Assembly (NCBI GenBank): GCA_019056805.1
Contig: DXJG01000007.1
Coordinates: forward strand, 1,992 to 65,991
From: Candidatus Baldrarchaeota archaeon
Lineage (GTDB): Archaea > Asgardarchaeota > Baldrarchaeia > Baldrarchaeales > DXJG01
DNA: 64,000 nt
Reading direction: 5' to 3'
In this document: positions 1 to 54,376 of the stretch, piece by piece
Position numbering within the stretch: position 1 is the first letter of the stretch
Layout of the letters: the number at the start of each line of letters is the position of its first letter
Translations under genes and position numbers: made by a program
The notes under the pieces: generated by a model
The model's input: the letters and a program-made list of their open reading frames with translations, nothing else
Databases searched by the model: none
What the model was told of the DNA's origin: nothing

Positions 1-246
1 ACTCCTACAATAATTTATGATCATCATTTGTTAAGAGATGCAAAATATCGTGAAAGAGTAAGCAAAGTGTATGATGTAGCAAAAAGAGAAGATAAATATG
101 TTTTAACAGCAGCTGAGTTTTTGGGCGAAGAACCCATGATAATTAAAGCTATTAAATGGAAAGAAAACGAAGAAGAACTCGAAGAATATATAAAAATGGC
201 TCAAAAAGAAATGGAAAGTTTCATACGAAAAACTAAACAAAAATAA
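1..246 (+). CDS. Hypothetical protein, C-terminal fragment (reading frame is open to the window start)
   Basis: ORF track 28..246; the same frame has no stop back to position 1, so the gene probably begins upstream of the window. No recognisable motif. Confidence 0.4.
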   Translation, partial: TPTIIYDHHLLRDAKYRERVSKVYDVAKREDKYVLTAAEFLGEEPMIIKAIKWKENEEELEEYIKMAQKEMESFIRKTKQK

Positions 247-257
247 AAAGGGTTGGG

Positions 258-3200
258 TTATTGTTTTGAGGGTTTAACTAGACTTTTTTCCATTGCTGCT
301 CGCTTTCTTTTGCGCATAATTACTATAGCTACACCGATTATTGCCACAGCAATTATTACGAGGTACATTAATGGTATTTCTCTTGGTGGTGGTGCTTCTT
401 CTCCTGGTTTACCTATTGTTGGTATCCAGCCAGCCAAGAATTCTGCTAATGAGCTTACTATTGTTTTCTTTTGTTTGCCGGAGTATACTACTACTTCAGG
501 GTCTTCGTAGACGAAGTATCCGTCCCATTTCGGAAATCCTACGCTTAGGAAGTACATGGTACTTTGGAATGTCCATCCGCCAACGCTTGTTTCAGATTCG
601 TAGTCTGTGTACGTTGCAACGAAGGTGCTTAGCGGAATTGTGTGAGTTGAAACGTTGCAAACCATGCTTAGGTTTCCGCCCCAGATGTATGTGTCACCCA
701 TGTTTACCTCTGCAAACTTTAATCCACTAGTGTCTAGTGAAATTCTTGATGCTTCTACAATTTCATCTGGGGTTATTGGTGTTCCATCTTCACTTACTAC
801 TTCCCAGCTTCCACTTGTTTCTGCGTAGATGTAATAGTTGAGTGATAAGCTTAGGTTTTCTAAAACGGCTATGCCCGTTGGTAGGTCTAGATCCCAGTTT
901 CCTATATGTTGGTCTATCTTTATGCGAGCCTCTGTACTATTTGTTGCTGTTGAGTTTTCTACGTAGAAGTGTAGTTTGAAGGATAGTTCTTCAAGTGAAG
1001 CGTCTACCGGGCGTTCTTGGAATGTGCGGAGATCTGTGCCATAAATTTCTTCACCATACCATGCGTAGTAGCTTCTTCCAAACGGGAACATTGTACCATT
1101 AATGTCAAGATATGAAACACCGAATTCTACGCTTTCGTTTATTGGAAGTGTTAACATTCCGGTTTCATTGTAGATGCCAAAGGCTTCTCCGGGAGTAACG
1201 AATATTACATTGCCTACAGCTTCAGGTATGAAGTAATGAGTAGCCTCGTCTTCATCCATGATCAGATTGTCATTTGTATCGTTGTAGATAAATATACCTG
1301 CGTATTCGTATCTAAGATCTACATGGTAGGATTGGAAGGTTTCATTTTCTCCTGTTGAAACCCAGTATGATTGTTGGAAGCCGAACCAGAGCCATGTCCA
1401 AGTGACTTCTTCTTTAACCCAGTCCCAACCTTCTTCTTCAGCCTTTTTGAGGTAGTCTTCCCATGTCATGTTTCTTGCCATTCTTGCAATGTCCCAGTAT
1501 CCTGATTTAGGAGCATTTCTCTCGGTGTCCCAGAGAGTTTCATTTATTATGGCCATCGTCTCTGGTGAAACTGGTGTCATGTTTGTGTAGAACCAGTAGT
1601 ATGTTTCATTCCATCTGTTCCAATAGGTATTGGTGGATGTTCCCATCCAAGCATTTACAATTAATTCATCGCCGGGTATTACTGGGTTTGGATCGTACAC
1701 TATATTAACGTCAAGGCCATTTACTGTTTCATTCCAGCCGAATTCTCCAACATATACCCTCTTAACATAGAATTGATCATCTGTTGTACTTAGATCTCCA
1801 TCTAAGTCTAGTGCACCAGTTGTAGGATCTATTGTCCACTTTCTGTAACCCCAAAGACCCCATTCAGGGGATCCAACAATTACATCCCAAACTTCGTACC
1901 TGTAGGAAACATCGCCCCACCGAAGTTCTTCAAGATGCCAAGTCACGGGGTAACCCCAAGAGAGACGAGCTACCTTGATATGCTCAACATATAGATTTGT
2001 TGTGTAATTTACACCATTTACCGTTATATTGTATATTGGGAATTCATATTCGTAAGAGTAGAGGTCATTATAGTATCTTGGCGGTATAGTGTACCACCAT
2101 TCTGGGTGCAGAAGCCAGTTGATCGGTATTAGATCGTACCATGCACCTGACACTGTGTAAATACGGTAGTAGTCATACATTAGATTTATTGATCTATACT
2201 CGTTTATCCATACTGTTGTATTGTAGGTTTCACCGTTCCATGTGAAGGTTTCTGGTCCAGGATATTCATATCCGCCTAGTTCTACGGTCACTATTCCTAT
2301 AAACTCGTAGTCTTCTAAGCTTTCCAGATCTATTCTGGAACCGTTAAGCAGATACAAAACATAAGTATTGTTTTCCCAGTCATATTCTGGTTCAGGGATA
2401 ACTGTGTAATATATGGTACCACTTACGTTTACTTCAAAAAAGACAACCCTTAGATGACGGGATACATCTAGGAGTGTTCCATTAAACAGAGTAACATTAC
2501 CAGATTCAGTGGTGGAATCGTAGGTGAAATAGTCAACATATAATTTTATTAGGCTTTCTCTATCGTATGATCCCTGGTTTGTCAGATTTCCTATGAATAT
2601 TGCAAATCCTATTTCTTCGATATCCCAACAATCTATTCCAGATACCTTCGTGTATAAGCCTTGTCCCTTTGTAATGCTATAGGTCACACCATCTACGATA
2701 ATGTATCCTGTCGTAGCACCCTCATAATCGTAATGAATAAGGTACAAGGAACCATTTACTAAGGCGTAATCGTCTTCAGGAACTGCTCCACCCTCGCTCT
2801 TTGGCTGCTGTAGGCACCACCATGAAAGCCATTCGTACTCGTCACTTACACCTTCATATGGAAGCTCTACTCTTTCTTCTCCCACTAAGGTGTAATACCA
2901 AGATCTTTTGAACCATTCGGGTACAATTATGGACTTTCCATTGTATTCCCCGACATAATATGCTGATGGATATTCGATGTAGTATCTTTTACCATTTCTT
3001 TCAAAGTAATACATGTACATATAGTCGTAGTCATACCTTACGTAAATCTTTGTTCCGTTTTCAAGTAGAATATAGTATTCCTGTGCTATGTAGTCCCAGT
3101 CTATCCACCCCTTTGTAAGGTTAACCCATGTGGTTCCATTGATAACGGTAAAGTAACCACCAAACTCGACTGGTACTCTGCCGATCTTCTCAACGTTTAA

Positions 3201-6200
3201 ACAATAATTGTAGTCTGCTAACCATATAATTTCTCCATCTAGAGTAATTATGAAGTAGGCTTCTTCAAAAATACTCCACCATGGCGAACTCATATACGTT
3301 GTAATGTTGTAAGTCTCGCCAGTAGTTTCGTCGTAGATTGTTGCATTATATATGAATGCATGGTATGCTTCATATACGTAAATCTTTGTTCCGTTTTCTA
3401 ATATGTAGTAGCGTTTGTATTCGTAGGTTGTTGGATCCCATTCTTCACGTAGCAATCTGTATTCGTATTCGTATCCGTTCCAGAACTTTATTTCTTTTAA
3501 CGGTAGTTTTTCGCCGTTTATTAATATGTAGGGCTTACTTAAGATGAGATATTTCTTGCCATTTGATGTTTCTGCATAGTATCTTGTCTCTGGGTTGGGT
3601 ATGTATACTTCAACGCTTCCATTATTAATGGTATAGACTTTGCTGTATGCCCAGTCTTCTAAAATATGTTCTCCCCATGGTTCAGTATAATCTGGACCAT
3701 ATGTCCAGTTAAGCAAGTTAACACTAAAACTGTATCTTTGGTCATTGGCGTATTCGGTGAAACTCATATTCACTTGAATGAGATACTTTCCATCTTCTGT
3801 GGCGAAAGCACTATAATTGTTTACAATAATATAGGTTTCGTTTACGACTGTGTCTTTGTGATGCCAGTCTAGCCACATATTTATCCATTCACCAGAAGTC
3901 TGGTTGAAAGAGTAGTGTTCCCAATGCCATCCTTCAACTTCTTCCATCGTACCTGTGGTCTCATTCCATATTTCGTACGTACCATACTCGTAGACCTCTT
4001 TGTTAGTTTGATTGTAAACTATTATTTCTGTGGTGTTTTCTCTTAGATTTATTGTTGCAATTATTTCCAAGTTGCTCCATATAGTTTCATTTTCGCTCCA
4101 ATAGTAATTCCAACAGTTGAATCTAACTCTTATTCCATCGACATCGGTTACAAGCTGACTGCCACCTTCCATTTCTACTTCAACTATAAACCATTGGCCA
4201 GGATTAGTCGCAAAATACCAAGTTCCAGAAGTTGCTCCTTCTTGATCTCTAATTCTAACATTAATTACTGGTTTCTCTACGGAAAGTTGATGTGCATTTT
4301 CATATATCCACTCCCAGTCTCTTGGCCATATCCTCCACTGACTACTATATACGTAGTAGTCTATCCATAGGTTTGGCCCAGGATTTCCTATGAACTTCCC
4401 TTCAAATTCTAATATGATTTTATTATCTTCAACGGTTTTTGTGCCGCTTATTAGCTCGTAGAGCCGTAATTCAGAGGGTACCTCCTCGATTTTCCAACCT
4501 TCCACATAGTCAATGTATTGTCCCCATTCATCCTCTTTTAGTGTTTCATTCCAGTATTGGTAGAGCAGATAATAGTTAAAAGTACCGTCTGTATTATTGT
4601 AGAAGAGAAGCAAATTGGGTGAAGCCCAGTCTGTTGTTTCTACCTCATAATATTCTCCTGTTGTTTCGTCCCAGTAAACTCTTGTTACATTTATTTCTTT
4701 AGCAATAGTTACCCATTGCTCCATTAGATATGGTCCAAACACCCACTCCCTTGTTATTATTGTGGCATTTGGATCCCAAACATATGTGTCTAGGGTTTCA
4801 TTGTATACCCAGCCTCCATGATATACCCTGTATTCTTCATGCCACCCCGTCACATTAACATAGGTCCTCAAGCTATATGGAAGACGAATTACTATGCTGG
4901 CGTTTCTAAAATCAGCATCAGATATCCCGGTTATGTTTAGTCTTATGATAAATGTTTGGTTGATTCCAACACTACGGATTAATTCATAGTCTGTGTTTAA
5001 TATTTCTGCTAGGTACGTACCACCATACATCATGTCAAAGTATACTGCTACTTCGTCCCATGGACCGCCTATGGCGACCTCTTTGTATAAGCTTAGTTCA
5101 CTGTCCCAATAATAGTACGAGGATGTACTAATGTAATTGCTTTCATTGTCAAAGATGTTTAGATAGACATTGTATATTCCTTTTGGAGTTAGGTCGTTAA
5201 ACTGGCCTGTTATTACGAAGTTATATTGATCTGGGGTTTCAATTAGGGTTGTTTGACTTTGATTCAATGTAAAGAACTCACCCGTAGTACTGCCGTATGG
5301 GTCTGAATAGTTATAAATAGAGGTCCATGTAGACCAATCATTCGATGAGTAATCGTAGTAAATTGATAGATAGGCGGATATATTTACGGCCCACATATTC
5401 CAAGATAGATCTATTGTTCCAAGTTCGGTGCCTTCTTCAAATAGGAGTTTGGGAATTGTTATGTTTATCATTACAGGTGCGTTTAATTCAATCCATGTGT
5501 CTGGTGTAACCAAATACCAGGTTTCGGTTGTTGTGTTGTAGCAGAATATGTCGTAATGTGCTTTGGGGCCAAACTCCCAGCTTATGTCTCGGTATGTCCA
5601 GTTCCATCCCCATGTTTCGTTGTATAGTCTCCACCATACTCTTATCTCGGGTGGTAAATTCATTACTGATGGGTCGACATAAATTGCGTCTTCAGTTTCA
5701 TAGTATAGTAGCTCACTGAAGAACGGTATGATATGCAAGGTATACGTTGTATCAGCTAGCCAATTTCCTATGATTATTTTGAATCCTACAAAGTTTAAGC
5801 TGGCATTTCTTGCTCTTTCTATAGCGTCTCTTGCGTCAAAAGGCACTGAGCATTCTGGGGTCCCAAAGTCATATGACTGATAGGGTTCAACAGGGTTAAG
5901 TTCATCATTATAAAAGTCTATAAGTACTGATTCGATTGTCGCTCCGTTGTCTATGGAGGCATTAAATCCAGTTAAAAATTCAATTGCTCTTAGTTCTGCT
6001 ATTATTAAGATTTCTACAGTACCGCTATCCGCGCTTGTGTTGGAGAATGTTATAAATAGTTCTCCTTCGATGAAAGAAGCATTAAAGAAGGCTAAAACTC
6101 CTAATTCCTCATTGTAGAATATATATACATTTGGCTCTCCTTCTTCTCCTTCTTCTGGTGGTGGATATTCTGCTCCGCCTGCTTCTACTCTAAAGTGGTG

Positions 6201-6710
6201 CTCTGTGTTTTCAGTCCAGTCTCTTATGGTTACCGTAAACTTAACACAAGTTGCTCCAATGTCAGTTGCTCTTACAGCTATTTCTTCACCGTTTATACTT
6301 ATGGTTGTTCGATCTGTGCCTATGTTGGTGACTGCATAAGTATCTAAAACGTTAAATGCATCATCACAAAGATGTATACTTAATGAATCAATTATGGCGC
6401 CGCCGTCGATGCTTAGTGACAGTTCTTGTAGTCCCCTTACACCGTCAAGTGTGACGTAAATTAATAAATCTACAGTTTCACTGTCTTTTGAACTATTTTG
6501 AAAAGTGATTTCAAGCCCGTTTTCAATTAATGTATAATTGAAATAGTCTAGTGGTTTTCCTTCAGCATAATAGTCTACCATTATTACGGGGCTTTCTCCT
6601 TCCTGTTTTGGTATCATTGCCGAACTTAAGTTAATACTCGAAAGAACTATTAGTACACAAAGTATCACTGAAAAAAGAGGCTTAAAACCTATTTTATTTA
6701 CCATTTTCAT
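258..6710 (-). CDS. Giant cell-surface protein (2150 aa), signal peptide plus C-terminal transmembrane anchor, aromatic-rich and probably N-glycosylated
   Basis: Uninterrupted 6.45-kb ORF. N-terminus MKMVNKIGFKPLFSVILCVLIVLSSINLSSA looks like a signal peptide; C-terminus has one hydrophobic helix (LMYLVIIAVAIIGVAIVIM) followed by RKRKR. Very rich in Y/W/T/N/E with many N-x-S/T sequons and internal repeats (e.g. YILENGTKIYV twice). Confidence 0.85.
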   Translation of the reverse strand: MKMVNKIGFKPLFSVILCVLIVLSSINLSSAMIPKQEGESPVIMVDYYAEGKPLDYFNYTLIENGLEITFQNSSKDSETVDLLIYVTLDGVRGLQELSLSIDGGAIIDSLSIHLCDDAFNVLDTYAVTNIGTDRTTISINGEEIAVRATDIGATCVKFTVTIRDWTENTEHHFRVEAGGAEYPPPEEGEEGEPNVYIFYNEELGVLAFFNASFIEGELFITFSNTSADSGTVEILIIAELRAIEFLTGFNASIDNGATIESVLIDFYNDELNPVEPYQSYDFGTPECSVPFDARDAIERARNASLNFVGFKIIIGNWLADTTYTLHIIPFFSELLYYETEDAIYVDPSVMNLPPEIRVWWRLYNETWGWNWTYRDISWEFGPKAHYDIFCYNTTTETWYLVTPDTWIELNAPVMINITIPKLLFEEGTELGTIDLSWNMWAVNISAYLSIYYDYSSNDWSTWTSIYNYSDPYGSTTGEFFTLNQSQTTLIETPDQYNFVITGQFNDLTPKGIYNVYLNIFDNESNYISTSSYYYWDSELSLYKEVAIGGPWDEVAVYFDMMYGGTYLAEILNTDYELIRSVGINQTFIIRLNITGISDADFRNASIVIRLPYSLRTYVNVTGWHEEYRVYHGGWVYNETLDTYVWDPNATIITREWVFGPYLMEQWVTIAKEINVTRVYWDETTGEYYEVETTDWASPNLLLFYNNTDGTFNYYLLYQYWNETLKEDEWGQYIDYVEGWKIEEVPSELRLYELISGTKTVEDNKIILEFEGKFIGNPGPNLWIDYYVYSSQWRIWPRDWEWIYENAHQLSVEKPVINVRIRDQEGATSGTWYFATNPGQWFIVEVEMEGGSQLVTDVDGIRVRFNCWNYYWSENETIWSNLEIIATINLRENTTEIIVYNQTNKEVYEYGTYEIWNETTGTMEEVEGWHWEHYSFNQTSGEWINMWLDWHHKDTVVNETYIIVNNYSAFATEDGKYLIQVNMSFTEYANDQRYSFSVNLLNWTYGPDYTEPWGEHILEDWAYSKVYTINNGSVEVYIPNPETRYYAETSNGKKYLILSKPYILINGEKLPLKEIKFWNGYEYEYRLLREEWDPTTYEYKRYYILENGTKIYVYEAYHAFIYNATIYDETTGETYNITTYMSSPWWSIFEEAYFIITLDGEIIWLADYNYCLNVEKIGRVPVEFGGYFTVINGTTWVNLTKGWIDWDYIAQEYYILLENGTKIYVRYDYDYMYMYYFERNGKRYYIEYPSAYYVGEYNGKSIIVPEWFKRSWYYTLVGEERVELPYEGVSDEYEWLSWWCLQQPKSEGGAVPEDDYALVNGSLYLIHYDYEGATTGYIIVDGVTYSITKGQGLYTKVSGIDCWDIEEIGFAIFIGNLTNQGSYDRESLIKLYVDYFTYDSTTESGNVTLFNGTLLDVSRHLRVVFFEVNVSGTIYYTVIPEPEYDWENNTYVLYLLNGSRIDLESLEDYEFIGIVTVELGGYEYPGPETFTWNGETYNTTVWINEYRSINLMYDYYRIYTVSGAWYDLIPINWLLHPEWWYTIPPRYYNDLYSYEYEFPIYNITVNGVNYTTNLYVEHIKVARLSWGYPVTWHLEELRWGDVSYRYEVWDVIVGSPEWGLWGYRKWTIDPTTGALDLDGDLSTTDDQFYVKRVYVGEFGWNETVNGLDVNIVYDPNPVIPGDELIVNAWMGTSTNTYWNRWNETYYWFYTNMTPVSPETMAIINETLWDTERNAPKSGYWDIARMARNMTWEDYLKKAEEEGWDWVKEEVTWTWLWFGFQQSYWVSTGENETFQSYHVDLRYEYAGIFIYNDTNDNLIMDEDEATHYFIPEAVGNVIFVTPGEAFGIYNETGMLTLPINESVEFGVSYLDINGTMFPFGRSYYAWYGEEIYGTDLRTFQERPVDASLEELSFKLHFYVENSTATNSTEARIKIDQHIGNWDLDLPTGIAVLENLSLSLNYYIYAETSGSWEVVSEDGTPITPDEIVEASRISLDTSGLKFAEVNMGDTYIWGGNLSMVCNVSTHTIPLSTFVATYTDYESETSVGGWTFQSTMYFLSVGFPKWDGYFVYEDPEVVVYSGKQKKTIVSSLAEFLAGWIPTIGKPGEEAPPPREIPLMYLVIIAVAIIGVAIVIMRKRKRAAMEKSLVKPSKQ

Positions 6711-6993
6711 TACTTTTCCTCCAAAGTCATAACATTTATTATTACCTATTGTTGTATTATCTACTACTATAATTTAATTCTGGTAATGAAAATGTACTAG
6801 TTTGTATATATAAAAATTTTTGCAACGCGATGTTTTAGTAACATGTTATAACAAAAAGTTATCCTAGTAGTCAATGTAAGTCCGAAAACCACTCAAGAAA
6901 TTAATAAATAATAATTCACAATTTACTGTTCATAAATCGAAACCTTATTATAATATGTATTACCACAAGTCTATATCTTAGTGAAAAATAAGT

Positions 6994-7031: not shown

Positions 7032-9194
7032 ATGAATGAAATATTAATTTCAGCTGTTTTGATCCTTTTACCTAATATTTTAATAGCTTTGATTGTCCTT
7101 TTGATGAGATATACTCGTTTTAAAGAAATTGCATTGCGTACAGGAATAGCCTTCTCTGCGTTTTGGCTAATATATTGTATTGGCTCAAGTATAGTTTTCA
7201 ATTTGATCGGAGTTGAACCGAACTTAGTTTATTCTTCCCGAGATTTTTCAATATCAAACTTAAAGACTCTTGCAACTTATGTAGTATCTCTAGCAATATA
7301 CTCTCTCACTTTGACAATCACTTACCCGGTTTTCATGTTCCCATTTGTTTTCTTCCTTGCTCCTATAATAGCCGTTTTAATTCTACTTTACGCCGTTAGA
7401 GGAAGAGGAATAAAAGAAATAACTTTTTGGATCGATTTAAAACCCAAAAGATTGATGGGGTGGGATGAAGAAAAAGAGGTTTTGAAACTTTTAATAGCTC
7501 TTCTACCTGTTTCTCTATATTTCTTAACATCATTACTACGAATATTGAAATACGAGGAAGATCCGCTTTCGGTTGGTAGTACCTTGTTGGGCTGGGTACT
7601 TGAAATTTATATGCTTTTTCTTTTATCTTTCATAGTGGCGGTGAATCTTCTTTATACTTCTCGTGTTTATCACGGAAACAGGTTTGTAGGTGAAACTATT
7701 AGAAGAAATACCTTCAATAATCTCTTATCTATAAGTATTGTGCTTTCGTCCGTAAGTCTTATACTTTTTGTACAAATTTTCAAGGGAATCATCTACGTTT
7801 TCATATACTTCTCACTATATTACATTGCGATAACTATTATTTTCCTTTCATTCTTCAAAGTAATGGAACCAACTTCCGTGTATATCTTTGCTAAAATTCT
7901 AACTTTTATGAGAGATGAAAATAAATTCCAAAGAATATTTGAAAAAAGAACGCTTGTACTAGGCATTATAGTTGGTATAGTGGTTACTTTAGCTTCTCTT
8001 TTCTGCACATACGCTTTTATATCGGTTTATTGGAGCTACGTGAATATAGATCTAGATGCCCTTTTAGGTGAATGTTCTTTAGATAGCAGCCCCTCCCTGG
8101 AAATTTTGGAAATTTTAAACATACTTATTTCTTTAGGATCTTTACAAAGATTTTTTGAAATAGCAATTATAATGTTTCTTATCTATGCGCTCAGAAATAT
8201 GGTTAAAATAAAATTTTTCATAGCTGGCATATATGTAGGCATATTTAAGGTATTTGCTGACTATCCCCTTTTACAGCGCGCAACTAAAGCTTGGACTACA
8301 ACTGTATTTTCAAGTGCGAACATTGGTTTCGTCAACATTTTAGTTCCAAGGTTTGCCTATCTAGGATTGACAACTTCTTATCTGGGTTCATCTGTCTATC
8401 AATTTATAGTCATACCTATACTTCTCCTTAAACTTTTAGCAACACTCTTAGTTTTTACTGTTTTAGTTTACTTAAAATTTGGTAAACTTGTTCAGTTTAT
8501 CGATGTTGAAGCTGGACATCAAATAAAATATATATGTGAAGTTGAACCTGACTATATTACTCCTAACTCGTTGATAAAACTGAAAATAGCAAAAATATTT
8601 GAAGAAAAAATTCCAGAAGATCTTTTACAGATCGTAGAATTCTTTAAGACAAAAACATACACTTTTCAAGAATTAAAAGAAAAATTAGGCATGCCTGATG
8701 AAAAATTAAAGAAAATTCTCCGATATCTGCATGAAAATTACATTATTGACATTTACGACTGCGAATTTAAAATAGTTACACCAGCACCAGTGATAGAAGG
8801 AATATATATTGTGAATACAGACGGTATAGCTCTGTACAGTAAGTCATTTGGTGAAGTAAAAGTCGAACCTTTATTGATTTCAGGTATGCTTTCAGCAATA
8901 ACTAGCTTCGTTAAAGAAACAACAAGAAGTCAACAATATTTGCAAGCTATTGATCACGGTGATGTCGTTCTCATGATAGAATATGGAGATGGATTTTTCG
9001 TCACCCTTTTGGCGAACAGAGAAACCCCTGAAATTCGTATGAAATTAAGGGAATTTGTTAGGCGATTCCAAGAAAAATACGGTGAAATTCTCAAACGATG
9101 GAGTGGAGATCCCGGTGAATTTGAAAATGTTGAAAAATTAGTCAATGAAGTTTTTGAAATCACATCTACTAGTGAAGAAATAACCACTACCTAG
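7032..9194 (+). CDS. Polytopic membrane protein with C-terminal cytoplasmic domain (putative roadblock/longin-like alpha/beta domain)
   Basis: First ~500 aa contain many hydrophobic helices; C-terminal ~220 aa are hydrophilic with pattern GIYIVNTDGIALYSKSFG...LISGMLSAITSF...FFVTLLAN...KRWSGDPGEF, homologous to the C-terminus of the 48963..51935 protein. Confidence 0.8.
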   Translation: MNEILISAVLILLPNILIALIVLLMRYTRFKEIALRTGIAFSAFWLIYCIGSSIVFNLIGVEPNLVYSSRDFSISNLKTLATYVVSLAIYSLTLTITYPVFMFPFVFFLAPIIAVLILLYAVRGRGIKEITFWIDLKPKRLMGWDEEKEVLKLLIALLPVSLYFLTSLLRILKYEEDPLSVGSTLLGWVLEIYMLFLLSFIVAVNLLYTSRVYHGNRFVGETIRRNTFNNLLSISIVLSSVSLILFVQIFKGIIYVFIYFSLYYIAITIIFLSFFKVMEPTSVYIFAKILTFMRDENKFQRIFEKRTLVLGIIVGIVVTLASLFCTYAFISVYWSYVNIDLDALLGECSLDSSPSLEILEILNILISLGSLQRFFEIAIIMFLIYALRNMVKIKFFIAGIYVGIFKVFADYPLLQRATKAWTTTVFSSANIGFVNILVPRFAYLGLTTSYLGSSVYQFIVIPILLLKLLATLLVFTVLVYLKFGKLVQFIDVEAGHQIKYICEVEPDYITPNSLIKLKIAKIFEEKIPEDLLQIVEFFKTKTYTFQELKEKLGMPDEKLKKILRYLHENYIIDIYDCEFKIVTPAPVIEGIYIVNTDGIALYSKSFGEVKVEPLLISGMLSAITSFVKETTRSQQYLQAIDHGDVVLMIEYGDGFFVTLLANRETPEIRMKLREFVRRFQEKYGEILKRWSGDPGEFENVEKLVNEVFEITSTSEEITTT

Positions 9195-10781: not shown

Positions 10782-13700
10782 GTGTTTCACCCTGATTTTA
10801 ACAAGAAGGCTTCTCCAACAACTAAATTAATATCTATGCTTCTGCTTTTAGCTCTTCTCTTAACCTACTGCTACTATCCAGCGACATTGTTTACGAATAC
10901 AAACTATCCGCAAACTACCTCCCTACTAATTTATAGAGACAATGAAACCACTGATAGCTTGACAAAGGTATCTTACGATGACGAAAATTTACAAGAATGG
11001 TTAAGTTCACTTAGAAGCTTAGAGGTTCCAGCAGGATCTCCAATGGATATTTATCCCGTTAGGGAGAGCATAGCTGTTGATTTATGGCCGGGAATCTATT
11101 TTCCGGAGGATGTTGAAATTTATAAGCCTCTTATAGAGGATCTTCATGCTCAAGGAATAAAATATATGATTTATAGGAATTTTTACATGGTTACTGATGT
11201 AAACTACACTTACCTATGTGAGTATTATCCTGGTTTCAATGCATCGAATGCTGGTTTTATAGATTTAGATGGAAACCCGTATATAGTAGATTATGATCCC
11301 TACGGTACACCAATATTTAGAGCTTCAACAAATAGACCTTATTGGCAAAGTTTTCTCATAAATTCAACGAAATTAGCTATCGATGCTGGTGTAGATGCTG
11401 TTGTTTTTGATGTTGGATTTGGACATTATCCTCCAAATGAGTTAAATTTTGATCCAGATAGCATTAAAGATTTTAGAGAATACCTAGCAGAAAAATATAC
11501 TTCAGAAGAATTGGCTTCAAAATTTAATATTTCTGACATTTCTACATTCGATTTTGGGCAGTATCTTAGAGATCTAGGATATAATGCTAGTAGTTTAAGG
11601 GAAGCTTTAACGCAAGGAACATCATTGGGATACTATGCTGATTTGTTATGGTCGGAGTGGTGTGAATTTCATCTTAAAGTTTTGGTGGAGTTTTATAAGA
11701 GACTTTATACCGAGGTAAAAGAATATGCTCAAAGTAAAGGACGAGATTTCTATGTTTTCTCCAATATTTATCATGGTCTTGATCCCCAGTACAATATACT
11801 CTATTTGATTAATTATGTGGATGGTATCTATGCAGAAATTTTCTTTGATGATTTACAGTATCCAAATAGAACTCCAGCAACAGTTTATAAGGTAGCTTAT
11901 AGTTTAGGGAAACATTATATCCCTATGACTTCTCCATCCAACGATTCGGAACTATATCCATTATATATTGCAGAGCTTTTTGCATGTGGCAGCTGGACGG
12001 GTGGAGCAGGAAACTATACTCCATATTTCCTTTTTGTTAACTCGCATCCTGAACTATTCAGTAAGGAACAGGACGGTGAAATAGGACTTGTTTACTCTTT
12101 AGCTTCAAGTGAAAACTATAGTTCATTTGAGGGTGCCTTTTACCTTCTCTCTGATACCCAGCGTAGTTTTGATGTTATTGTTTTTGGAGATAATAAGTGG
12201 TTTAATGAAAGCTTGACATTAAATGACTTGTTAAAGTATAGAGCAATTTTACTACCTAATACTGGTTATCTTACAGATGAACAAGTTGAATTGCTTCTGA
12301 ACTATGCTGAACAAGGTGGTATTCTAATAGGCATTGGAAGTGTTGGAACACGAAATGAAACCGGGGAAATTGTCAACTCAGAGACTCGAACAACGTTTAT
12401 CAGCCTTTTTAATGGTAGCATAGTTTCTTATGGAAGTGGAACAGTTATTTCATGGACCAGTGATATAGCTTTACAGTACTTATTGCAGAGAAATACAACA
12501 CTTTTAGAAGAATTTGAAAATAGATTAAGTGAAGTGTTTTCTCCCGAAATCATAACAAGCTTTACCCACAATACCACTATATTTCAATACTGGGATCCTG
12601 AATCTAATGCTATGATCTTTCATTTCTTAAATCGTGAATATGACTCCAAAAACGATGTAATAACACCTCAACACGATGTGAGCTTTAAGTTTACTTTAAG
12701 ACCTGAATTGGACGGTCTTCCTCTTGAAATAAGATTTTATTCACCGAATGACTATTTCGAAGGAATAGAGTTGACTTACAGCTCAGATCCTAATGGATAT
12801 GTGGAAGTAACAATTCCGAAAGTACATATATGGGGTATTTTGCGTGTGGAAGCTAAGAAAAAAGCAGTACAAGAAGATTTAGTAATTAACAGTCCAACCG
12901 TGCTTAAGGATCAAGTTATAGTTTTGAACGGTAACCTATTAGTTAACTCAAAGTTGACATTGGAGAATGTTATTTTAAAGATGAATAGTTCCCTTGACAG
13001 GGTGTTTCGAATAGAAGTTTATGAAGGAGGAGAACTTGTTATCAAAGACTCTGTCATTACTGCGTATGATCCAAAGTATCACTATTATGTTAAGGTGAAT
13101 AAGGGCAGTCGGTTCTATATGGAGAATAGTGAGTTAAGCCATGCTGGTGTTTGGGGACCTATGTATGCTGGAGGGCTGTGGATAAACACGGATGATGTCA
13201 TAATCTTAAACTGTACAATACATAGTAATTATGACTATGGAATACATGTATATAATGCTTCATACGTCGAGATAATAAACTGTAAAATTTACGGCAACAA
13301 TATAGGAATATACTTGCTCAATTCATCTTTCGTAACCATCTCTAAATGTAACATTTACGATAATTCAATTGGTATCTACGAAAAGGGAAGCTACTATTCT
13401 ACAATCAAACACAGTCATATCTCAAATAATTTATACTGGGGAATAACAATTTGGGACTCTCTATTCCCATTAATATCTGATAGTACCATTCATGATAGTG
13501 TCCATGATGGAATTATCATTTGGTACTCGTTTTTCGCAAAAATTTACAACTGCAAAGCTTACAGTAATGAAAATGGTTTTAACATACGATACACGCCTTT
13601 AGTGACAGTTTCAAGTAGCGAAGTGTATAACAATGAGGAGGCAGGCTTGTTTTTCTTCCATGTTGAGCTTCTGTATGGTCATCCGTTGGCAATTCTTGAT

Positions 13701-15104
13701 TCTCTTGGCACTATAGTTGCTAACAGTTTTTACAATAACACATATGGCATATACATGTTGGAAAGTGAAAAAACTAAGATTGAAGCTTGCAATATACTTG
13801 ATAACACGTGGGGAATATATGTTGAAGGAACTACTCAATGCACTTTCATTTTCCGTTCAAACTTCATTGATAACACCGATCACATTTATGTTGATGAAAA
13901 GGCTCAAGGAAAAATTCAATTTGACAACATAACAATTGGAAACTACTGGGATGACCACAGTGGAGAAGATGCTGATGGTGATGGTATTATTGATACACCT
14001 TATACTATTAACTCGGTAGATAAAGACTATAAGCCGCTAGCTAATCCAGTTACTATCGTAAAAATAGAAGATATATATGGGCCTATGATCACGGACATTC
14101 AAGTCGTGAAAGAAGAGGGAAATGAAAATTACAATTTAACAATATCTGTTAATGTCACTGATGATTCTTGGTTAAGTTGGGTTTTAATGAACGGAACAAT
14201 ACATAATTTGCCGGGTGGAGAAAACTATCCTTTGATGCGTATAATGGTATATTTCTACGATCCCTTTGCTACTATCTTAGGCTATGATAGGTCAAACTTC
14301 AATCTTCTTCCATCAGAAGGATATCCTCTCAAAACATGTACAGCTTCAACTCAGTTCACTTTTCCTCTTAGCTATAAGCCTCATTTCAAGATTTTTGCTG
14401 TGGATACCTATGGGAACTGGGCTGAAAATGACTCTACAACTCCTCATATAACTGGTATATTTTGGGATCCAAGTAGTCCTGAATATGATGAAGAGGTAAC
14501 TGTGTTTGTTCATGTATTTGATCAAAGCAGGATATCTGAATGTTTACTAAGTTACTTTAATGGAACAGAGTGGAATAACGTTTCAATGATATATAATGAG
14601 GAAACAAATGCAATGGTTGGAAGCATTCCAAAACAACCATATGGAGTTACAGTAGAATTCAAGGTAATTGTTAAAGATACTATGAACAATATAGCTGTAA
14701 GTGCAACTTATTCTTACACTGTTAAAGATACTACTCCGCCAATATTGAGAATAATTCAGCCAAGTGGCGGAGAAACAATTTCTAATGATGTTAATGTTAC
14801 TTGGGAGTCCTATGATGAAGGTTCGGGGTTAAAAGAATTCAAAATTTATTTAAATGGAACATTAAAAGCTACTTTGCCCCCTACAACATCCTGTTATCTT
14901 CTATCTAACTTAACACCAGGTTCTTACAATGTTACAGTTGAAGCTGTGGATAATGCTGGCAACCGTGCAACTGCATCAATAGTTTTCAAGTATGTCTCTG
15001 AAGAAGGTGGATTACCTAACTCTCTCATACTCATGGGAGGAACAATAGCCGGTGTTGTAATTATAGTTACAGTGTTTTTAATGAGAAAGAAACTAAAAGA
15101 TTGA
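10782..15104 (+). CDS. Large surface-anchored protein (1440 aa) with parallel beta-helix (PbH1/NosD-like) repeats and Ig-like domains
   Basis: N-terminal hydrophobic segment; central run of repeats of the type IINCKIYGNNIGIYLLNSSFVTISKCNIYDNSIGIY typical of right-handed beta-helix proteins; Ig-like region near the C-terminus; C-terminal TM anchor LILMGGTIAGVVIIVTVFLMRKKLKD. N-terminal ~600 aa may be a glycoside-hydrolase-like domain (weak). Confidence 0.85.
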   Translation: MFHPDFNKKASPTTKLISMLLLLALLLTYCYYPATLFTNTNYPQTTSLLIYRDNETTDSLTKVSYDDENLQEWLSSLRSLEVPAGSPMDIYPVRESIAVDLWPGIYFPEDVEIYKPLIEDLHAQGIKYMIYRNFYMVTDVNYTYLCEYYPGFNASNAGFIDLDGNPYIVDYDPYGTPIFRASTNRPYWQSFLINSTKLAIDAGVDAVVFDVGFGHYPPNELNFDPDSIKDFREYLAEKYTSEELASKFNISDISTFDFGQYLRDLGYNASSLREALTQGTSLGYYADLLWSEWCEFHLKVLVEFYKRLYTEVKEYAQSKGRDFYVFSNIYHGLDPQYNILYLINYVDGIYAEIFFDDLQYPNRTPATVYKVAYSLGKHYIPMTSPSNDSELYPLYIAELFACGSWTGGAGNYTPYFLFVNSHPELFSKEQDGEIGLVYSLASSENYSSFEGAFYLLSDTQRSFDVIVFGDNKWFNESLTLNDLLKYRAILLPNTGYLTDEQVELLLNYAEQGGILIGIGSVGTRNETGEIVNSETRTTFISLFNGSIVSYGSGTVISWTSDIALQYLLQRNTTLLEEFENRLSEVFSPEIITSFTHNTTIFQYWDPESNAMIFHFLNREYDSKNDVITPQHDVSFKFTLRPELDGLPLEIRFYSPNDYFEGIELTYSSDPNGYVEVTIPKVHIWGILRVEAKKKAVQEDLVINSPTVLKDQVIVLNGNLLVNSKLTLENVILKMNSSLDRVFRIEVYEGGELVIKDSVITAYDPKYHYYVKVNKGSRFYMENSELSHAGVWGPMYAGGLWINTDDVIILNCTIHSNYDYGIHVYNASYVEIINCKIYGNNIGIYLLNSSFVTISKCNIYDNSIGIYEKGSYYSTIKHSHISNNLYWGITIWDSLFPLISDSTIHDSVHDGIIIWYSFFAKIYNCKAYSNENGFNIRYTPLVTVSSSEVYNNEEAGLFFFHVELLYGHPLAILDSLGTIVANSFYNNTYGIYMLESEKTKIEACNILDNTWGIYVEGTTQCTFIFRSNFIDNTDHIYVDEKAQGKIQFDNITIGNYWDDHSGEDADGDGIIDTPYTINSVDKDYKPLANPVTIVKIEDIYGPMITDIQVVKEEGNENYNLTISVNVTDDSWLSWVLMNGTIHNLPGGENYPLMRIMVYFYDPFATILGYDRSNFNLLPSEGYPLKTCTASTQFTFPLSYKPHFKIFAVDTYGNWAENDSTTPHITGIFWDPSSPEYDEEVTVFVHVFDQSRISECLLSYFNGTEWNNVSMIYNEETNAMVGSIPKQPYGVTVEFKVIVKDTMNNIAVSATYSYTVKDTTPPILRIIQPSGGETISNDVNVTWESYDEGSGLKEFKIYLNGTLKATLPPTTSCYLLSNLTPGSYNVTVEAVDNAGNRATASIVFKYVSEEGGLPNSLILMGGTIAGVVIIVTVFLMRKKLKD

Positions 15105-15333: not shown

Positions 15334-16560
15334 TTGCAGTTTGGAGCTTTCTTTGGTATTTGGCTGATTTTCTTAATATTTATATTTATGCTAGCTGCTG
15401 AAGAAAGTCAAAGGAGAAAAGAAACTTTTCAGAAAATATATTCATGGTTAAAACAGAAATCTAAAAAGATATATTATGAAAAAGGCGGCTTTTTGAAAAG
15501 ACCTAGAATTATTGCAGAATTGAAACCAGAAATGGAATTGGAACGAGTTGAAGTTACAACATTTACTGTTCACCACGGGTATTATACAGGTACACATTAC
15601 GCTTCACATGCAAGAACTTATCTTAGAATCTTGGGTACGAGTGAGGAAGGTACTTTTGTAAACATCACTATAAGAGATGAAGGTCTTTTTGATAAACTTG
15701 CTATAGGGCTAGGACTTACAAAAGATATAGATTCAGGAGACCCCATATTTGATCAAACACATAGAATTAAAAGTGGAACACCTGAAATCGCCCTTAAACT
15801 CCTAAAGGATAAACAATTTAGAGATTATGTATCAATGATTCGTGATTTAAGGAAGTTTGAAATTAGAGGAGGAAAACATTTACATTTTATAGTTGAGTGT
15901 AATTATGACGTTTCATCTGCTGTGAATGCTATTTTAGCTATGGAAAGAACTGCAGAAGTTTTAGCGCCAGAGATTGAAAGAAAACCAGTAAAGGTTGAAA
16001 AAGCAAGACCCGTAACCCCGAAAGTAGAGCCTCGCAGAGCCGTAAGTTCCGAGGTAACGTTGAAATTGAAGAAAGAGTTTGAAAAATTGTCAATTTCTGT
16101 TTCTAAATTAGAATTTAAACCTTCAGAAGAAAACTTCACTAGGGTGATCATTACACCTTTACTAGGCGAATTCGATTACGTGCAATATGAAATCACTGAA
16201 AAATTGAAGGTAAGAGCTTTGGATAATCTTGAGAAACCTGCAAGTAAAACAATTACGATTCAGATATACCCCAAAGATATGAAAACAACCTCAACTCAAA
16301 AACCTACCTCTATTGAGGAAATCAAGACATTATTTGATATTAGGTGTGAGGATCAAGAAGTTTTAAGAAGAATTTCCGAAGCATACATACTTTTTGAAGT
16401 ATTAAGCGAGATTAAAGAATTGTCTAACTTCAATGTAAAACTGCAAGGCCAAACAATGGAAATATACTTAGAATGTGGCTTAAATCCAGAGAATATTAGG
16501 AGAGCTTATGAAGTAATCAGAGAAGCTGCATGGTGGACAAAATTCTATATACTAATTTAA
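15334..16560 (+). CDS. Uncharacterised membrane-anchored protein, paralog family member 1
   Basis: N-terminal TM helix; about 50-60 percent identical by eye to the 16723..17955 product, with shared blocks RVIITPLLGEFDYVQYEI and EEIKTLFDIRCEDQEVLRRISEAYILF. Confidence 0.75.
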   Translation: MQFGAFFGIWLIFLIFIFMLAAEESQRRKETFQKIYSWLKQKSKKIYYEKGGFLKRPRIIAELKPEMELERVEVTTFTVHHGYYTGTHYASHARTYLRILGTSEEGTFVNITIRDEGLFDKLAIGLGLTKDIDSGDPIFDQTHRIKSGTPEIALKLLKDKQFRDYVSMIRDLRKFEIRGGKHLHFIVECNYDVSSAVNAILAMERTAEVLAPEIERKPVKVEKARPVTPKVEPRRAVSSEVTLKLKKEFEKLSISVSKLEFKPSEENFTRVIITPLLGEFDYVQYEITEKLKVRALDNLEKPASKTITIQIYPKDMKTTSTQKPTSIEEIKTLFDIRCEDQEVLRRISEAYILFEVLSEIKELSNFNVKLQGQTMEIYLECGLNPENIRRAYEVIREAAWWTKFYILI

Positions 16561-16722: not shown

Positions 16723-17955
16723 TTGTACTCTTTATGGTTTATATGCTTGTGGTTTGCATGTTCAACGTTGGTAATTATATTAGCTATTTGGTTTGAAAAA
16801 ATAAGAAAAGCAAGAATAACAGAAATCTTTCAGGAAATTTTCTTTTGGTTAAAAGAGAAATCTGAAAGAATACGTTATGAAAATCATAAAAACCCTAGAA
16901 TTACAGCTGAGTTAAAACCAGAATGGCAATTAGATCAGGTTGAAGTTACAACGTTTATTGATAAATATGAACACTATTACGACTACTATATGTTACGTGC
17001 ATCTGAAAGATTTAATCTTAGGATTTTAGGTGTAGGTGAGGGGAAACATTTTGTAAGTCTTGCTATAAAAGATAAAGTCCCTTTTGATAGAAGTGTTTTA
17101 GGATCAGGGTTTGCAGAATATGTAAAATCTGGAGATCCAGTATTTGATCATTGGCATATCATTAGGAGTAAAACACCTCAAGCCGCTCTCAAACTTTTAA
17201 AAGACGATAAATTTAGAAGCTACATCAGTAATATACACAAATTAAGAATTTTCAAAATTGAGGGAGATGGAACTCTAAGTTTTACTGTTGAATGTAACTA
17301 TGATCCAATATCTGCTAAAAATGCCATTTTGGCTATGAAAAGAGTATTAGAAGTTCTATCACCAAAAACTAAGGAAAAAACTGCCGTTAGTGAAAGGGTT
17401 AAACCCGCTGTTTTAAAAGCTGAACCTCAGAAAATTATAGATCCCGAATTACTTTTAAACTTAAGAAAAGAATTTGAAAAATTATCGACCCATGTTTCTA
17501 AGTTAGAGTTTAAACCCTTGGAGGAAAATTTCTCTAGAGTGATCATTACTCCTTTACTAGGCGAATTCGATTACGTGCAATATGAAATTGCTGAAAAATT
17601 GAAAGTAGAAGCAATAGACGACCTTAAGAAAACTGTAGAAAAACCCATTACAATTGAAATACGTCCTAAAGAAGTAACGTTATCATTAGGTCAAAAAATA
17701 GCTTTTATTGAGGAAATCAAGACATTATTTGATATTAGGTGTGAGGATCAAGAAGTTTTAAGAAGAATTTCCGAAGCATACATACTTTTTGATTCTTTGA
17801 GCAAAATCAAAGAATTGTCTATCTTCAGCATAAAGTTGCAAGATTCAACGTTGAAAATATGTTTAGAATGTAGTGTCGATCCTGAAAACATCAGAAAAGC
17901 TTATGAAGCAGTTAAAGAAGCTGTCAATCTGGTTAAATTCCACCTATTAATCTAG
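16723..17955 (+). CDS. Uncharacterised membrane-anchored protein, paralog family member 2
   Basis: Same architecture and conserved blocks as 15334..16560; tandem arrangement. Confidence 0.75.
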   Translation: MYSLWFICLWFACSTLVIILAIWFEKIRKARITEIFQEIFFWLKEKSERIRYENHKNPRITAELKPEWQLDQVEVTTFIDKYEHYYDYYMLRASERFNLRILGVGEGKHFVSLAIKDKVPFDRSVLGSGFAEYVKSGDPVFDHWHIIRSKTPQAALKLLKDDKFRSYISNIHKLRIFKIEGDGTLSFTVECNYDPISAKNAILAMKRVLEVLSPKTKEKTAVSERVKPAVLKAEPQKIIDPELLLNLRKEFEKLSTHVSKLEFKPLEENFSRVIITPLLGEFDYVQYEIAEKLKVEAIDDLKKTVEKPITIEIRPKEVTLSLGQKIAFIEEIKTLFDIRCEDQEVLRRISEAYILFDSLSKIKELSIFSIKLQDSTLKICLECSVDPENIRKAYEAVKEAVNLVKFHLLI

Positions 17956-28581: not shown

Positions 28582-30891
<2,310 letters not shown>

Positions 30892-31886: not shown

Positions 31887-33008
31887 ATGATCTCCATTGC
31901 TGGCGAAATCTTCGAAACAAAAGTATTAGCAGTAATTCTACCAATGTTTGCAATAATGGAGAGTTTGAGTTTTCTAGGAAACTTTTACACAGTTACATCT
32001 ATCTTTCAGACACCTCTCAACTACGTTACAAGCATTATCGTAATTTTCTTCAGTCTTCTAGGCACATATGGAACAGTCAAGAAAAATAGGTTTTTGCTTC
32101 ATCTATCATTACTAGCACCCATCACGATTATAATTTCTACAATTCAATTTCTAATTATTTCTAAAACTTCCCTGCAAACTATTTACCTGATATCTGGAAT
32201 TTCTGTTTTAGGAATAAGCTTACTTTGCCTTTACACTTCTTATAGAACCTTATCCTATTTACAAACTTTACAATCTTCCATCTCAGAAACACGAGAGAGG
32301 ATAAAAAGTGAGTATACGGTGGAACTTATTGATGTGGTAAAAATATACAAGATAGGGCCAATTGAGGTTCCAGCATTAAACGGTGTGAATCTTAAAATTA
32401 AGAAAAGAGAGTTTGTAGCAATAATGGGTCCTTCAGGTTCGGGTAAATCAACTCTTCTACATATAATTGGTGCATTAGATCGACCTACTTCAGGCAAAGT
32501 TATCATTGATGGAGTAGATATTTCCACCCTCAGCAATGATGAACTTGCAAAACTGCGTAATAAAAAAATTGGCTTTGTTTTTCAAGCATACAACCTAATT
32601 AACAGATCTACAGTGCTTAGAAACGTTGAGTTACCTGCACTTATAGGAGGAACGTCTAAAAAAGAGCGTATAAAGAAGGCTATTAAACTACTTGAGACCT
32701 TAGGGCTGAGTGATACTATTTATAGGAAACCTAAGACATTAAGTGGCGGTCAACAACAGCGTGTGGCTATTGCTAGAGCAGTAATCAATGATCCAGAAAT
32801 CATTTTGGCTGATGAACCTACTGGAAACCTTGACTCTAAATCAGGTAGAGAAGTTATGATGTATTTAAGAAAAATGAATAGAGAATTAGGAACAACCATA
32901 ATTGTTGTTACCCATGATAGAGAAATTGCTGAGATGACTGATAGAATAATTCACATTCGAGATGGAAAAATCATTGGAGAAGAGGTTTTAAGGAGGAAAG
33001 AAACATGA
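31887..33008 (+). CDS. ABC transporter ATP-binding protein (MacB/LolD-like) with an N-terminal four-helix membrane segment
   Basis: Walker A GPSGSGKSTLL, Q-loop, signature LSGGQQQRVAIARA, Walker B ILADEPTGNLD. Start set at the first ATG after the palindrome region; an in-frame GTG further downstream would give a conventional ATPase without the membrane segment. Confidence 0.85.
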   Translation: MISIAGEIFETKVLAVILPMFAIMESLSFLGNFYTVTSIFQTPLNYVTSIIVIFFSLLGTYGTVKKNRFLLHLSLLAPITIIISTIQFLIISKTSLQTIYLISGISVLGISLLCLYTSYRTLSYLQTLQSSISETRERIKSEYTVELIDVVKIYKIGPIEVPALNGVNLKIKKREFVAIMGPSGSGKSTLLHIIGALDRPTSGKVIIDGVDISTLSNDELAKLRNKKIGFVFQAYNLINRSTVLRNVELPALIGGTSKKERIKKAIKLLETLGLSDTIYRKPKTLSGGQQQRVAIARAVINDPEIILADEPTGNLDSKSGREVMMYLRKMNRELGTTIIVVTHDREIAEMTDRIIHIRDGKIIGEEVLRRKET

Positions 33009-54246: not shown

Positions 54247-54376
54247 TTTAAACAACCTTTAATGCTATTTCAAAACTTGAATTTAATTTATTTACTTCTA
54301 AATAGAGTATATACTTTTCTATTAGAAACATATTATTACAATTAAAAATGTAGACTTCATTTGCAGAATTTCAACT

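Follow-up and report, generated by a model that had tools for sequence, protein, structure and literature searches.

The window analysed here, a stretch of 64,000 nucleotides from contig DXJG01000007.1 of a Candidatus Baldrarchaeota archaeon (positions 1,992 to 65,991), carries on its minus strand (258..6710) a single gene for a protein of 2150 amino acids, referred to below as the giant protein. Judged by its sequence, it belongs to a small, undescribed family of Asgard archaea and Bathyarchaeia with a novel C-terminal domain, and no other member of that family has been characterised before. It may well be an abundant envelope glycoprotein with a type I anchor that makes up the bulk of the outer coat of protein and glycan. 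Such a coat could be either a canopy resembling a surface layer (S-layer) or a dense unordered one.

The open reading frame (ORF) starts with ATG and contains no internal stop. Nine full-length homologues of 2140–2228 residues, 52–76% identical to the giant protein and each from independent metagenomes, were recovered, and a tenth, P0012, has 2268 residues and 51% identity. Because these ten proteins of similar length (51–76% identical overall) stem from independent assemblies, an assembly artefact is excluded, in agreement with the original prediction of one intact giant gene.

Signals for export, membrane anchoring and glycosylation

A Kyte–Doolittle scan of the 2150-residue protein revealed exactly two hydrophobic segments, namely the N-terminal signal (residues 3–35) and a C-terminal helix. 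The former displays the n-, h- and c-regions of a signal peptide, with SSA at residues 29–31, and the latter (I2112–M2132) is followed by RKRKR, so that the signal peptide and the C-terminal transmembrane anchor with a basic tail, both proposed beforehand, are borne out. These features support a protein that would be exported and held by its C-terminal transmembrane helix. As regards sorting signals of the archaeosortase type, the protein stays below the cutoffs for Loki-CTERM (13.0 bits, cutoff 19.9) and Heimdall-CTERM (10.8 bits, cutoff 24). NCBIfam gave no match to PGF-CTERM, and the tail extends 18 residues beyond the helix.

The content of aromatic residues is indeed very high, as had been noted, with 9.0% Tyr and 4.4% Trp (as compared with 0–1.6% Trp in the other large ORFs of the window), while Cys accounts for 0.5%. 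The ectodomain, ∼243 kDa before glycans, has a pI of 4.19, with 315 acidic as compared with 114 basic residues; classic S-layer proteins have the same kind of composition, acidic and poor in Cys, Met and His.

The giant protein contains 65 N-x-S/T sequons (44 N-x-T and 21 N-x-S). In 2000 composition-preserving shuffles, 18.6±3.8 were expected and the maximum was 34, which corresponds to an excess of ∼12 standard deviations; the reversed motif occurs 24 times. The description of the protein as sequon-dense thus stands up to a count against expectation. The density amounts to 3.0 sequons per 100 residues, whereas it is 0–0.5 in the probable cytoplasmic ORFs of the window. Expressed differently, there is one sequon per 33 residues, within the range of one per 30–40 residues reported for the S-layer proteins of Sulfolobales, which are thermoacidophilic Thermoproteota (PMC11284389). 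All 11 aligned homologues retain 19 of the 65 sites, paralogues of just 27–39% identity still share 32, and the glycosite N1746 shows no variation among 45 diverged family members. These patterns indicate that the sequons are under selection, and heavy N-glycosylation, already proposed, is very probable in view of their excess and conservation.

Domain organisation and internal repeats

From the N-terminus, the signal peptide is followed by two β-sandwich repeats, the head and middle regions 1 and 2; then come the C-terminal domain, the linker, the transmembrane helix and the tail:

258..6710 (-): complete coding sequence, 2150 codons plus a TAA stop; full-length homologues are known
6618..6710 (-): signal peptide, residues 1–31, with a K-rich n-region, a hydrophobic core and the S-S-A cleavage motif at 29–31
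6186..6584 (-): N-terminal repeat 1, residues 43–175, a β-sandwich with one short helix; lineage-specific addition
5730..6128 (-): N-terminal repeat 2, residues 195–327, 32–40% identical to repeat 1
5115..5651 (-): conserved Trp-rich 'head', residues 354–532, consisting of segment 358–380 and then a β-sandwich
3591..5114 (-): middle region 1, residues 533–1040, β-sandwich domains with very long β-hairpins, predicted local distance difference test (pLDDT) values mostly 70–90
1995..3590 (-): middle region 2, residues 1041–1572, aromatic-rich antiparallel β-hairpin modules with N-G-[ST] turns, pLDDT ∼80
3132..3443 (-): copy 1 of a duplicated module, residues 1090–1193, including YILENGTKIYV (1101–1111)
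2247..2531 (-): copy 2 of the duplicated module, residues 1394–1488, found by hhalign
471..1988 (-): C-terminal domain, residues 1575–2080, family-defining and without Pfam or PDB relative
1776..1820 (-): motif G-A-L-D-L-D-G-D-L-S-T-T-D-D-Q, residues 1631–1645, largely invariant
378..470 (-): short Pro/Glu-rich linker, residues 2081–2111, joining the C-terminal domain to the membrane
315..377 (-): single transmembrane helix, I2112–M2132, from hydropathy
261..314 (-): basic cytoplasmic tail RKRKRAAMEKSLVKPSKQ, residues 2133–2150, RKRKR and 13 more residues

A self-BLAST of the whole protein gave the identity match only; the repeats were found by fragment-against-whole BLAST and by segment-wise hhalign. 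With the first of these methods, residues 43–175 matched residues 195–327 with E-values of 1e-13 to 1e-16, the two being separated by a PPPEEGEEGEP linker. The original prediction of two N-terminal repeats was therefore right as to the duplication, but the unit is ∼133 residues long and not ∼100. The aromatic-rich stretch quoted in it, WWRLYNETWGWNWTYRDISWEFG, corresponds to residues 358–380 of the head, in which W359, W370 and W377-E-F-G-P381 are invariant. The motif YILENGTKIYV does occur twice, at residues 1101–1111 and again as YILLENGTKIYV at 1212–1223. It is, however, not special, since hairpins of the form φ-x-φ-x-N-G-[ST]-x-φ-x-φ are numerous in residues 1041–1572; the N-G-[ST] sites number eight. 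These hairpins lie within the larger duplicated module of ∼100 residues, for which hhalign gave a probability of 92.5% over the core (1100–1168 versus 1404–1466).

Conservation in the C-terminal domain mostly concerns G, P, W and D, and its conserved motifs are G-A-x-D-x-D-G-D-x-x-T-T-x-D-Q (1631–1645), E-x-T-H (1821–1824) and K-I-D-Q-x-x-G-x-W (1930–1938). Column identity in alignment A2 reaches 70–80% in this domain as compared with 45–77% elsewhere. The D-x-D-G-D loop at 1631–1645 is a possible Ca2+-binding loop; it resembles those of EF-hands, dockerins and FG-GAP repeats, but a reading as one of these was rejected, no model for them having matched.

A family defined by its head and C-terminal domain

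The models of Pfam, NCBIfam and PHROGs gave no match to the giant protein even at E≤1. The haloarchaeal S-layer model TIGR04216 and the other S-layer models of Pfam and NCBIfam gave no match at E≤1, and the Pfam models for Big_1-13, invasin and PKD domains likewise found nothing in it. The C-terminal domain taken separately had no Pfam match either, CBM and CW_binding models included. Sequence matches in the PDB, whether obtained with the single sequence or with 10- and 45-sequence profiles, were rejected as chance (polybromo; the transmembrane helix and basic tail against CD46). The earlier statement that no catalytic motif is recognisable agrees with these Pfam, NCBIfam and PDB sequence searches, in which no known enzyme family matched.

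Profile searches with the full-length alignment were swamped by spurious candidates and added P0012 and P0013 only; an alignment of the C-terminal domain worked better. An exhaustive hidden Markov model search with this domain (residues 1575–2080) against 1.84 billion representatives yielded 128 clusters at 50% identity, of which 91 reached E≤1e-30. In every case the domain is located near the protein C-terminus. Among the representatives of at least 1000 residues, it is present in 53/53, a C-terminal transmembrane helix in 49/53 and a detectable head in 32/53. In most members the head directly follows the signal peptide, and the two N-terminal repeats occur in just two clusters besides that of the giant protein. 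Sequon density across the family is 1.6–3.9 per 100 residues and Trp content 2.4–6.0%.

The head and the C-terminal domain are co-conserved across the family while the middle varies. Long forms (∼1800–2500 residues) carry the full middle region; short forms (∼1100–1250 residues), which include proteins of Hermodarchaeota, are without middle region 2. In one Hermodarchaeota protein of 1218 residues, only residues 354–532 and 1624–2147 are shared, plus the signal peptide and anchor. This conserved family, defined by the head and the ∼500-residue C-terminal domain, was left out of the original prediction, whose account of the protein is otherwise correct as far as the sequence features given above are concerned. 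Labelled members come from Bathyarchaeia and from Baldr-, Hermod-, Thor-, Ran- and Promethearchaeota. One fragment that shares 80% identity with the giant protein bears the label Baldrarchaeia, and one named close homologue is labelled Bathyarchaeota, from a 2018 Guaymas metagenome-assembled genome (MAG).

Several observations concern individual members. Anchors and spacers appear to be swapped, P0073, P0148 and P0020 being among the members with DUF7743, CBM_56 or Big/Ig-like domains between the C-terminal domain and the transmembrane helix. In P0064 the C-terminus is formed by a Loki-CTERM sorting signal (22.8 bits versus the curated cutoff of 19.9). Close homologues were also seen on the short contigs L004 ('Aenigmatarchaeota') and L006 ('Micrarchaeota'), where the binning is probably wrong.

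Structure models

Two AlphaFold models were built, each from a 13-sequence alignment, for residues 32–1060 and 1040–2149. The first, with a mean pLDDT of 72, is all-β: a pair of similar sandwiches, each bearing one short helix, is followed by more sandwiches with very long hairpins, and a low-confidence stretch covers the Trp-rich motif. Its structural matches are generic Ig-like β-sandwiches with TM-scores of ≤0.3 on the target. The second model is confident (∼80) only at residues 1040–1572, a meander of long antiparallel hairpins. With Foldseek it found no match in the PDB at E≤1e-3. Weak matches to β-barrel proteins (LptD, TonB receptors, ushers) were rejected, since they mirror long antiparallel sheets only. 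As in the S-layer glycoproteins of archaea, the ectodomain combines a β-sandwich/Ig-like build with an acidic, Cys-poor composition.

Codon usage and genomic setting

The GC content at third codon positions (GC3) of the giant gene is 0.36 and its preference for C-ending codons among NNY codons (NNC preference) is 0.51, both at the top of the 32 ORFs of the window (others 0.21–0.31 and 0.09–0.47, respectively). Because minus-strand genes of this window tend to be slightly richer in C, the codon test was repeated on two orthologues encoded by the plus strand at their loci. For P0008 the NNC preference is 0.66 in a locus ranging from 0.23 to 0.74, where ribosomal protein S6e has 0.58; the tRNA synthetase in L001, at 0.74, tops its locus and stands above the orthologue at 0.66. 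For P0002 the value is 0.56 versus 0.10–0.52 at the locus, with RuBisCO at 0.52. GC3 or NNC preference that is highest, or nearly so, in three genomes is consistent with translational selection and in this way suggests high expression. The giant gene is also a local GC maximum, positions 1..6000 of the window having 0.38–0.40 versus ∼0.33 elsewhere, and this is due to GC3 and NNC preference and not to amino-acid composition alone.

The sequence around the gene contains three putative expression signals:

6718..6722 (-): Shine–Dalgarno-like GGAGG, 7 nt before the ATG, read from the sequence
6804..6815 (-): A/T-rich element TTTTTATATATA resembling a TATA box (TTTATATA-like), ∼95 nt 5′ of the ATG
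226..250 (-): oligo-T tract directly past the TAA stop, a candidate archaeal terminator

The A/T-rich element is a putative archaeal promoter. With an oligo-T tract right after its stop, the giant gene is probably monocistronic. P0008 lies in a chromosomal setting, among the genes for S6e, eIF2γ, Rpb7 and Spt4.

The gene neighbourhood is not kept beyond close relatives. The only syntenic gene is the divergent neighbour at 7032..9194 (+), which stands beside the giant gene in the close relatives L002 and L017–L019 and not in L001. It encodes a protein of 720 residues with ∼11 transmembrane helices in residues 1–490 and a soluble C-terminal part of ∼200 residues in which a winged helix and a roadblock/longin-like domain seem to be combined; neither Pfam nor NCBIfam matched the protein, and it contains no sequons. 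As this polytopic membrane protein alone is syntenic, and only in close relatives, reading the locus as an operon or system was rejected.

Probable role of the giant protein

A model in which the giant protein is a coat glycoprotein can be outlined as follows. The Sec signal peptide would direct export, and the C-terminal helix and basic tail, both present in the sequence, would hold the chain in the membrane in the presumed topology. An oligosaccharyltransferase would glycosylate the ∼60 conserved N-x-S/T sites. The C-terminal domain of ∼500 residues lies within ∼30 residues of the membrane, with the D-x-D-G-D...D loop as a possible Ca2+ site and the invariant glycosite N1746. Together with the Trp-rich head it forms the constant core of the family, which most likely would serve lateral or self-association, perhaps in a Ca2+-dependent manner. 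The variable middle and the two lineage-specific distal repeats would then set the height of the molecule and form its glycan-covered exposed face. The idea of an S-layer, raised in the original prediction, gains indirect support from the codon bias and the sequon density.

Several observations weigh against this interpretation. Cultured Asgard archaea are reported to have an amorphous coat of complex surface proteins and no ordered S-layer (PMC9834061; bioRxiv 10.1101/2025.11.06.686947), and no S-layer protein was detected in P. syntrophicum by proteomics. The codon bias, which the strand skew of the window partly confounds, is a proxy for abundance only. The four other sequon-rich surface proteins encoded in the window (see below) could equally be coat components. 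In addition, the C-terminal domain (residues 1573–2127) falls below pLDDT 50 in the model and is unusable there, so that self-association and the Ca2+ site are guesses as far as this domain is concerned. Finally, a pattern-based scan of 185,579 species-representative genomes confirmed the family at 14 loci in 13 genomes, two of them being paralogues (L011 and L012) in one MAG, Bathyarchaeota UBA233. A family so small, with few loci and with paralogues in one MAG, does not supply these clades with a universal envelope protein.

The main rival, close to the carbohydrate-binding or adhesive function raised in the original prediction, is a specialised adhesin or glycan-binding protein of modest copy number, whose hairpins and sandwiches would bind a polysaccharide, plant or detrital polymers, or a syntrophic partner; we consider it possible, if somewhat unlikely. 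The very high content of Trp and Tyr would fit such a function, as would the repeated φ-x-φ-x-N-G-[ST]-x-φ-x-φ hairpins of residues 1041–1572, which are reminiscent of the hairpin repeats in choline- and glucan-binding proteins. Some relatives carry CBM_56, DUF7743 or Big domains past the C-terminal domain, folds resembling surface glycan-binding proteins (SGBPs) are found among the structural matches, and surface proteins of Lokiarchaea have been proposed as mediators of cell–cell contact (PMC9834061). The giant protein itself, however, has no CBM, CW_binding or adhesin match in Pfam even at E≤1, and the structural matches are the generic β-sandwiches described above. No residue type is more conserved than Trp (39% invariant), as would be expected of buried cores, and its conservation would fit structural cores as well as binding sites. 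Moreover, the codon bias points to high, not modest, expression, and ∼60 N-glycans would hide much of the surface.

It is much less probable that the C-terminal domain is an undescribed surface enzyme, such as a glycoside hydrolase, lyase or peptidase, for which the rest of the chain would provide a spacer or a scaffold that binds the substrate. The domain is the most conserved part of the protein and contains invariant or nearly invariant polar residues (D1634, D1636, D1644, D1810, E1821, H1824, K1930 and D1932); surface-anchored multidomain enzymes of such size exist in archaea, the neighbouring ORF 10782..15104 being an example of the β-helix/NosD type. Yet even a 45-sequence profile retrieved no Pfam, NCBIfam or PDB sequence match, no catalytic motif is recognisable, and the invariant positions are mostly G, P, W, Y and D, typical of structural and metal-binding roles. 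The domain also always adjoins the membrane anchor, instead of occupying a distal position where polymeric substrates could be reached. As for a pseudogene, an assembly artefact, or a receptor-binding or fusion protein borne by a virus or mobile element, an archaeal integrase-like gene does lie ∼5 kb downstream of the distant homologue L010. Such an origin is effectively refuted by the intact reading frame with its ten homologues from independent assemblies, by the lack of a PHROG match, by the housekeeping and metabolic genes flanking the gene in the window and in L001, L002, L009 and L014, and by a codon usage biased toward that of highly expressed host genes.

Relation to known envelope proteins

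The coat glycoprotein proposed here shares a Sec signal, acidity, low Cys content and dense sequons with csg of Haloferax volcanii (PDB 7ptp), SlaA of Sulfolobales and the Nitrosopumilus S-layer protein, but it has no sequence relationship to them and, with 2150 residues, is larger. It further differs from these S-layer proteins in its membrane-proximal domain of ∼500 residues and its Trp-rich head, both without known relative, and in its unusual Trp content of 4.4%. C-terminal membrane anchoring is a feature in common with csg and with proteins of the tetrabrachion type, although the giant protein uses a plain transmembrane helix and an 18-residue tail in place of PGF-CTERM lipid anchoring or a separate SlaB stalk. 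Tetrabrachion of Staphylothermus marinus is a glycosylated envelope protein of ∼1500 residues with a C-terminal transmembrane anchor that forms a canopy far above the membrane. A long coiled-coil stalk dominates its structure, whereas the giant protein is all-β where modelled and has no predicted coiled coil.

The best structural matches to the N-terminal half are SGBP-B of Bacteroides (PDB 7kwb/7kwc), PrgB and RbmA, in which tandem β-sandwiches are likewise placed on a surface tether. The likeness is one of generic fold (7–12% identity, low TM-scores), with no binding site conserved. In contrast to the giant protein, these are bacterial lipoproteins or wall-anchored proteins that are not N-glycosylated. 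Among the archaeal surface proteins carrying Loki-CTERM (NF033507) or Heimdall-CTERM (NF045529), the link is through the one family member with a Loki-CTERM signal, the giant protein being below the cutoff.

The coat of Asgard cells has been seen by electron cryotomography in Ca. Lokiarchaeum ossiferum, P. syntrophicum and Ca. Y. umbracryptum, and the giant protein resembles the surface densities in tomograms in combining a large ectodomain with a single membrane anchor; it is a candidate for them and not a match. No homologue is known from the cultured species. S-layer proteins had been predicted for Asgard archaea, but modelling of a lattice failed and they were absent from the first glycoproteome. 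In Bathyarchaeia, Bathyarchaeum tardum has an S-layer and an outer sheath of unknown composition (PMC10477458).

It is tempting to speculate that the new family, with a ∼500-residue membrane-proximal domain of new fold and a Trp-rich head, forms the so far unidentified protein coat of Asgard archaea and, in some Bathyarchaeia, the S-layer or sheath, and that the variable, glycan-covered aromatic hairpin region mediates syntrophic contacts between cells, a proposal that we regard as rather improbable. The envelopes of Bathyarchaeia, which are among the most abundant archaea of sediments, are almost uncharted at the molecular level, and so are those of Asgard archaea, to which eukaryotes are most closely related. 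A conserved, probably highly expressed, sequon-dense and anchored family common to both groups offers a concrete and testable candidate for the coat, and it brings with it a large conserved domain without known relative. Its significance would rise substantially if abundance or localisation in the coat were shown. Should it turn out to be just one of many adhesins, the definition of the family would still be useful, but ordinary.

Other genes of the window

Four further large proteins encoded in the window appear to be exported and are rich in sequons (2.2–4.0 per 100 residues):

10782..15104 (+): β-helix/NosD protein with Big domains, a C-terminal transmembrane helix and a basic tail
33005..34639 (+): Ig-like protein within an ABC/FtsX-MacB operon
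37526..42442 (+): 1638-residue Ig-like/invasin-type protein
48963..51935 (-): 990-residue Big_3 protein

The first, third and fourth of these ORFs matched Big, PKD or invasin-type models. With these proteins, the organism appears to have a rich glycosylated surface proteome.

Two tandem paralogues of 408 and 410 residues, encoded at 15334..16560 (+) and 16723..17955 (+), have an N-terminal transmembrane segment and near-identical C-termini; apart from a pilin-like match at the level of chance, no family match was obtained for them. The CDC48 protein encoded at 28663..30891 (+) falls in a 90% cluster with named members from Baldrarchaeota (three), Bathyarchaeota (one) and Odinarchaeota (one), each ∼93% identical to it. 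Together with the fragment labelled Baldrarchaeia and the GTPase described next, this makes Baldrarchaeia, an Asgard class, the probable source of the window, a point absent from the original prediction. The labels conflict, but the 'Bathyarchaeota' labels that close homologues bear from 2018 MAGs may be outdated. Lastly, the 308-residue product of 53329..54255 (-) matches Pfam Gtr1_RagA (E 3.7e-27) and Arf (E 1e-18) in its N-terminal GTPase domain and has a C-terminal extension of ∼130 residues; by these matches it is a eukaryote-like small GTPase of the Rag/Arf family, typical of Asgard archaea.

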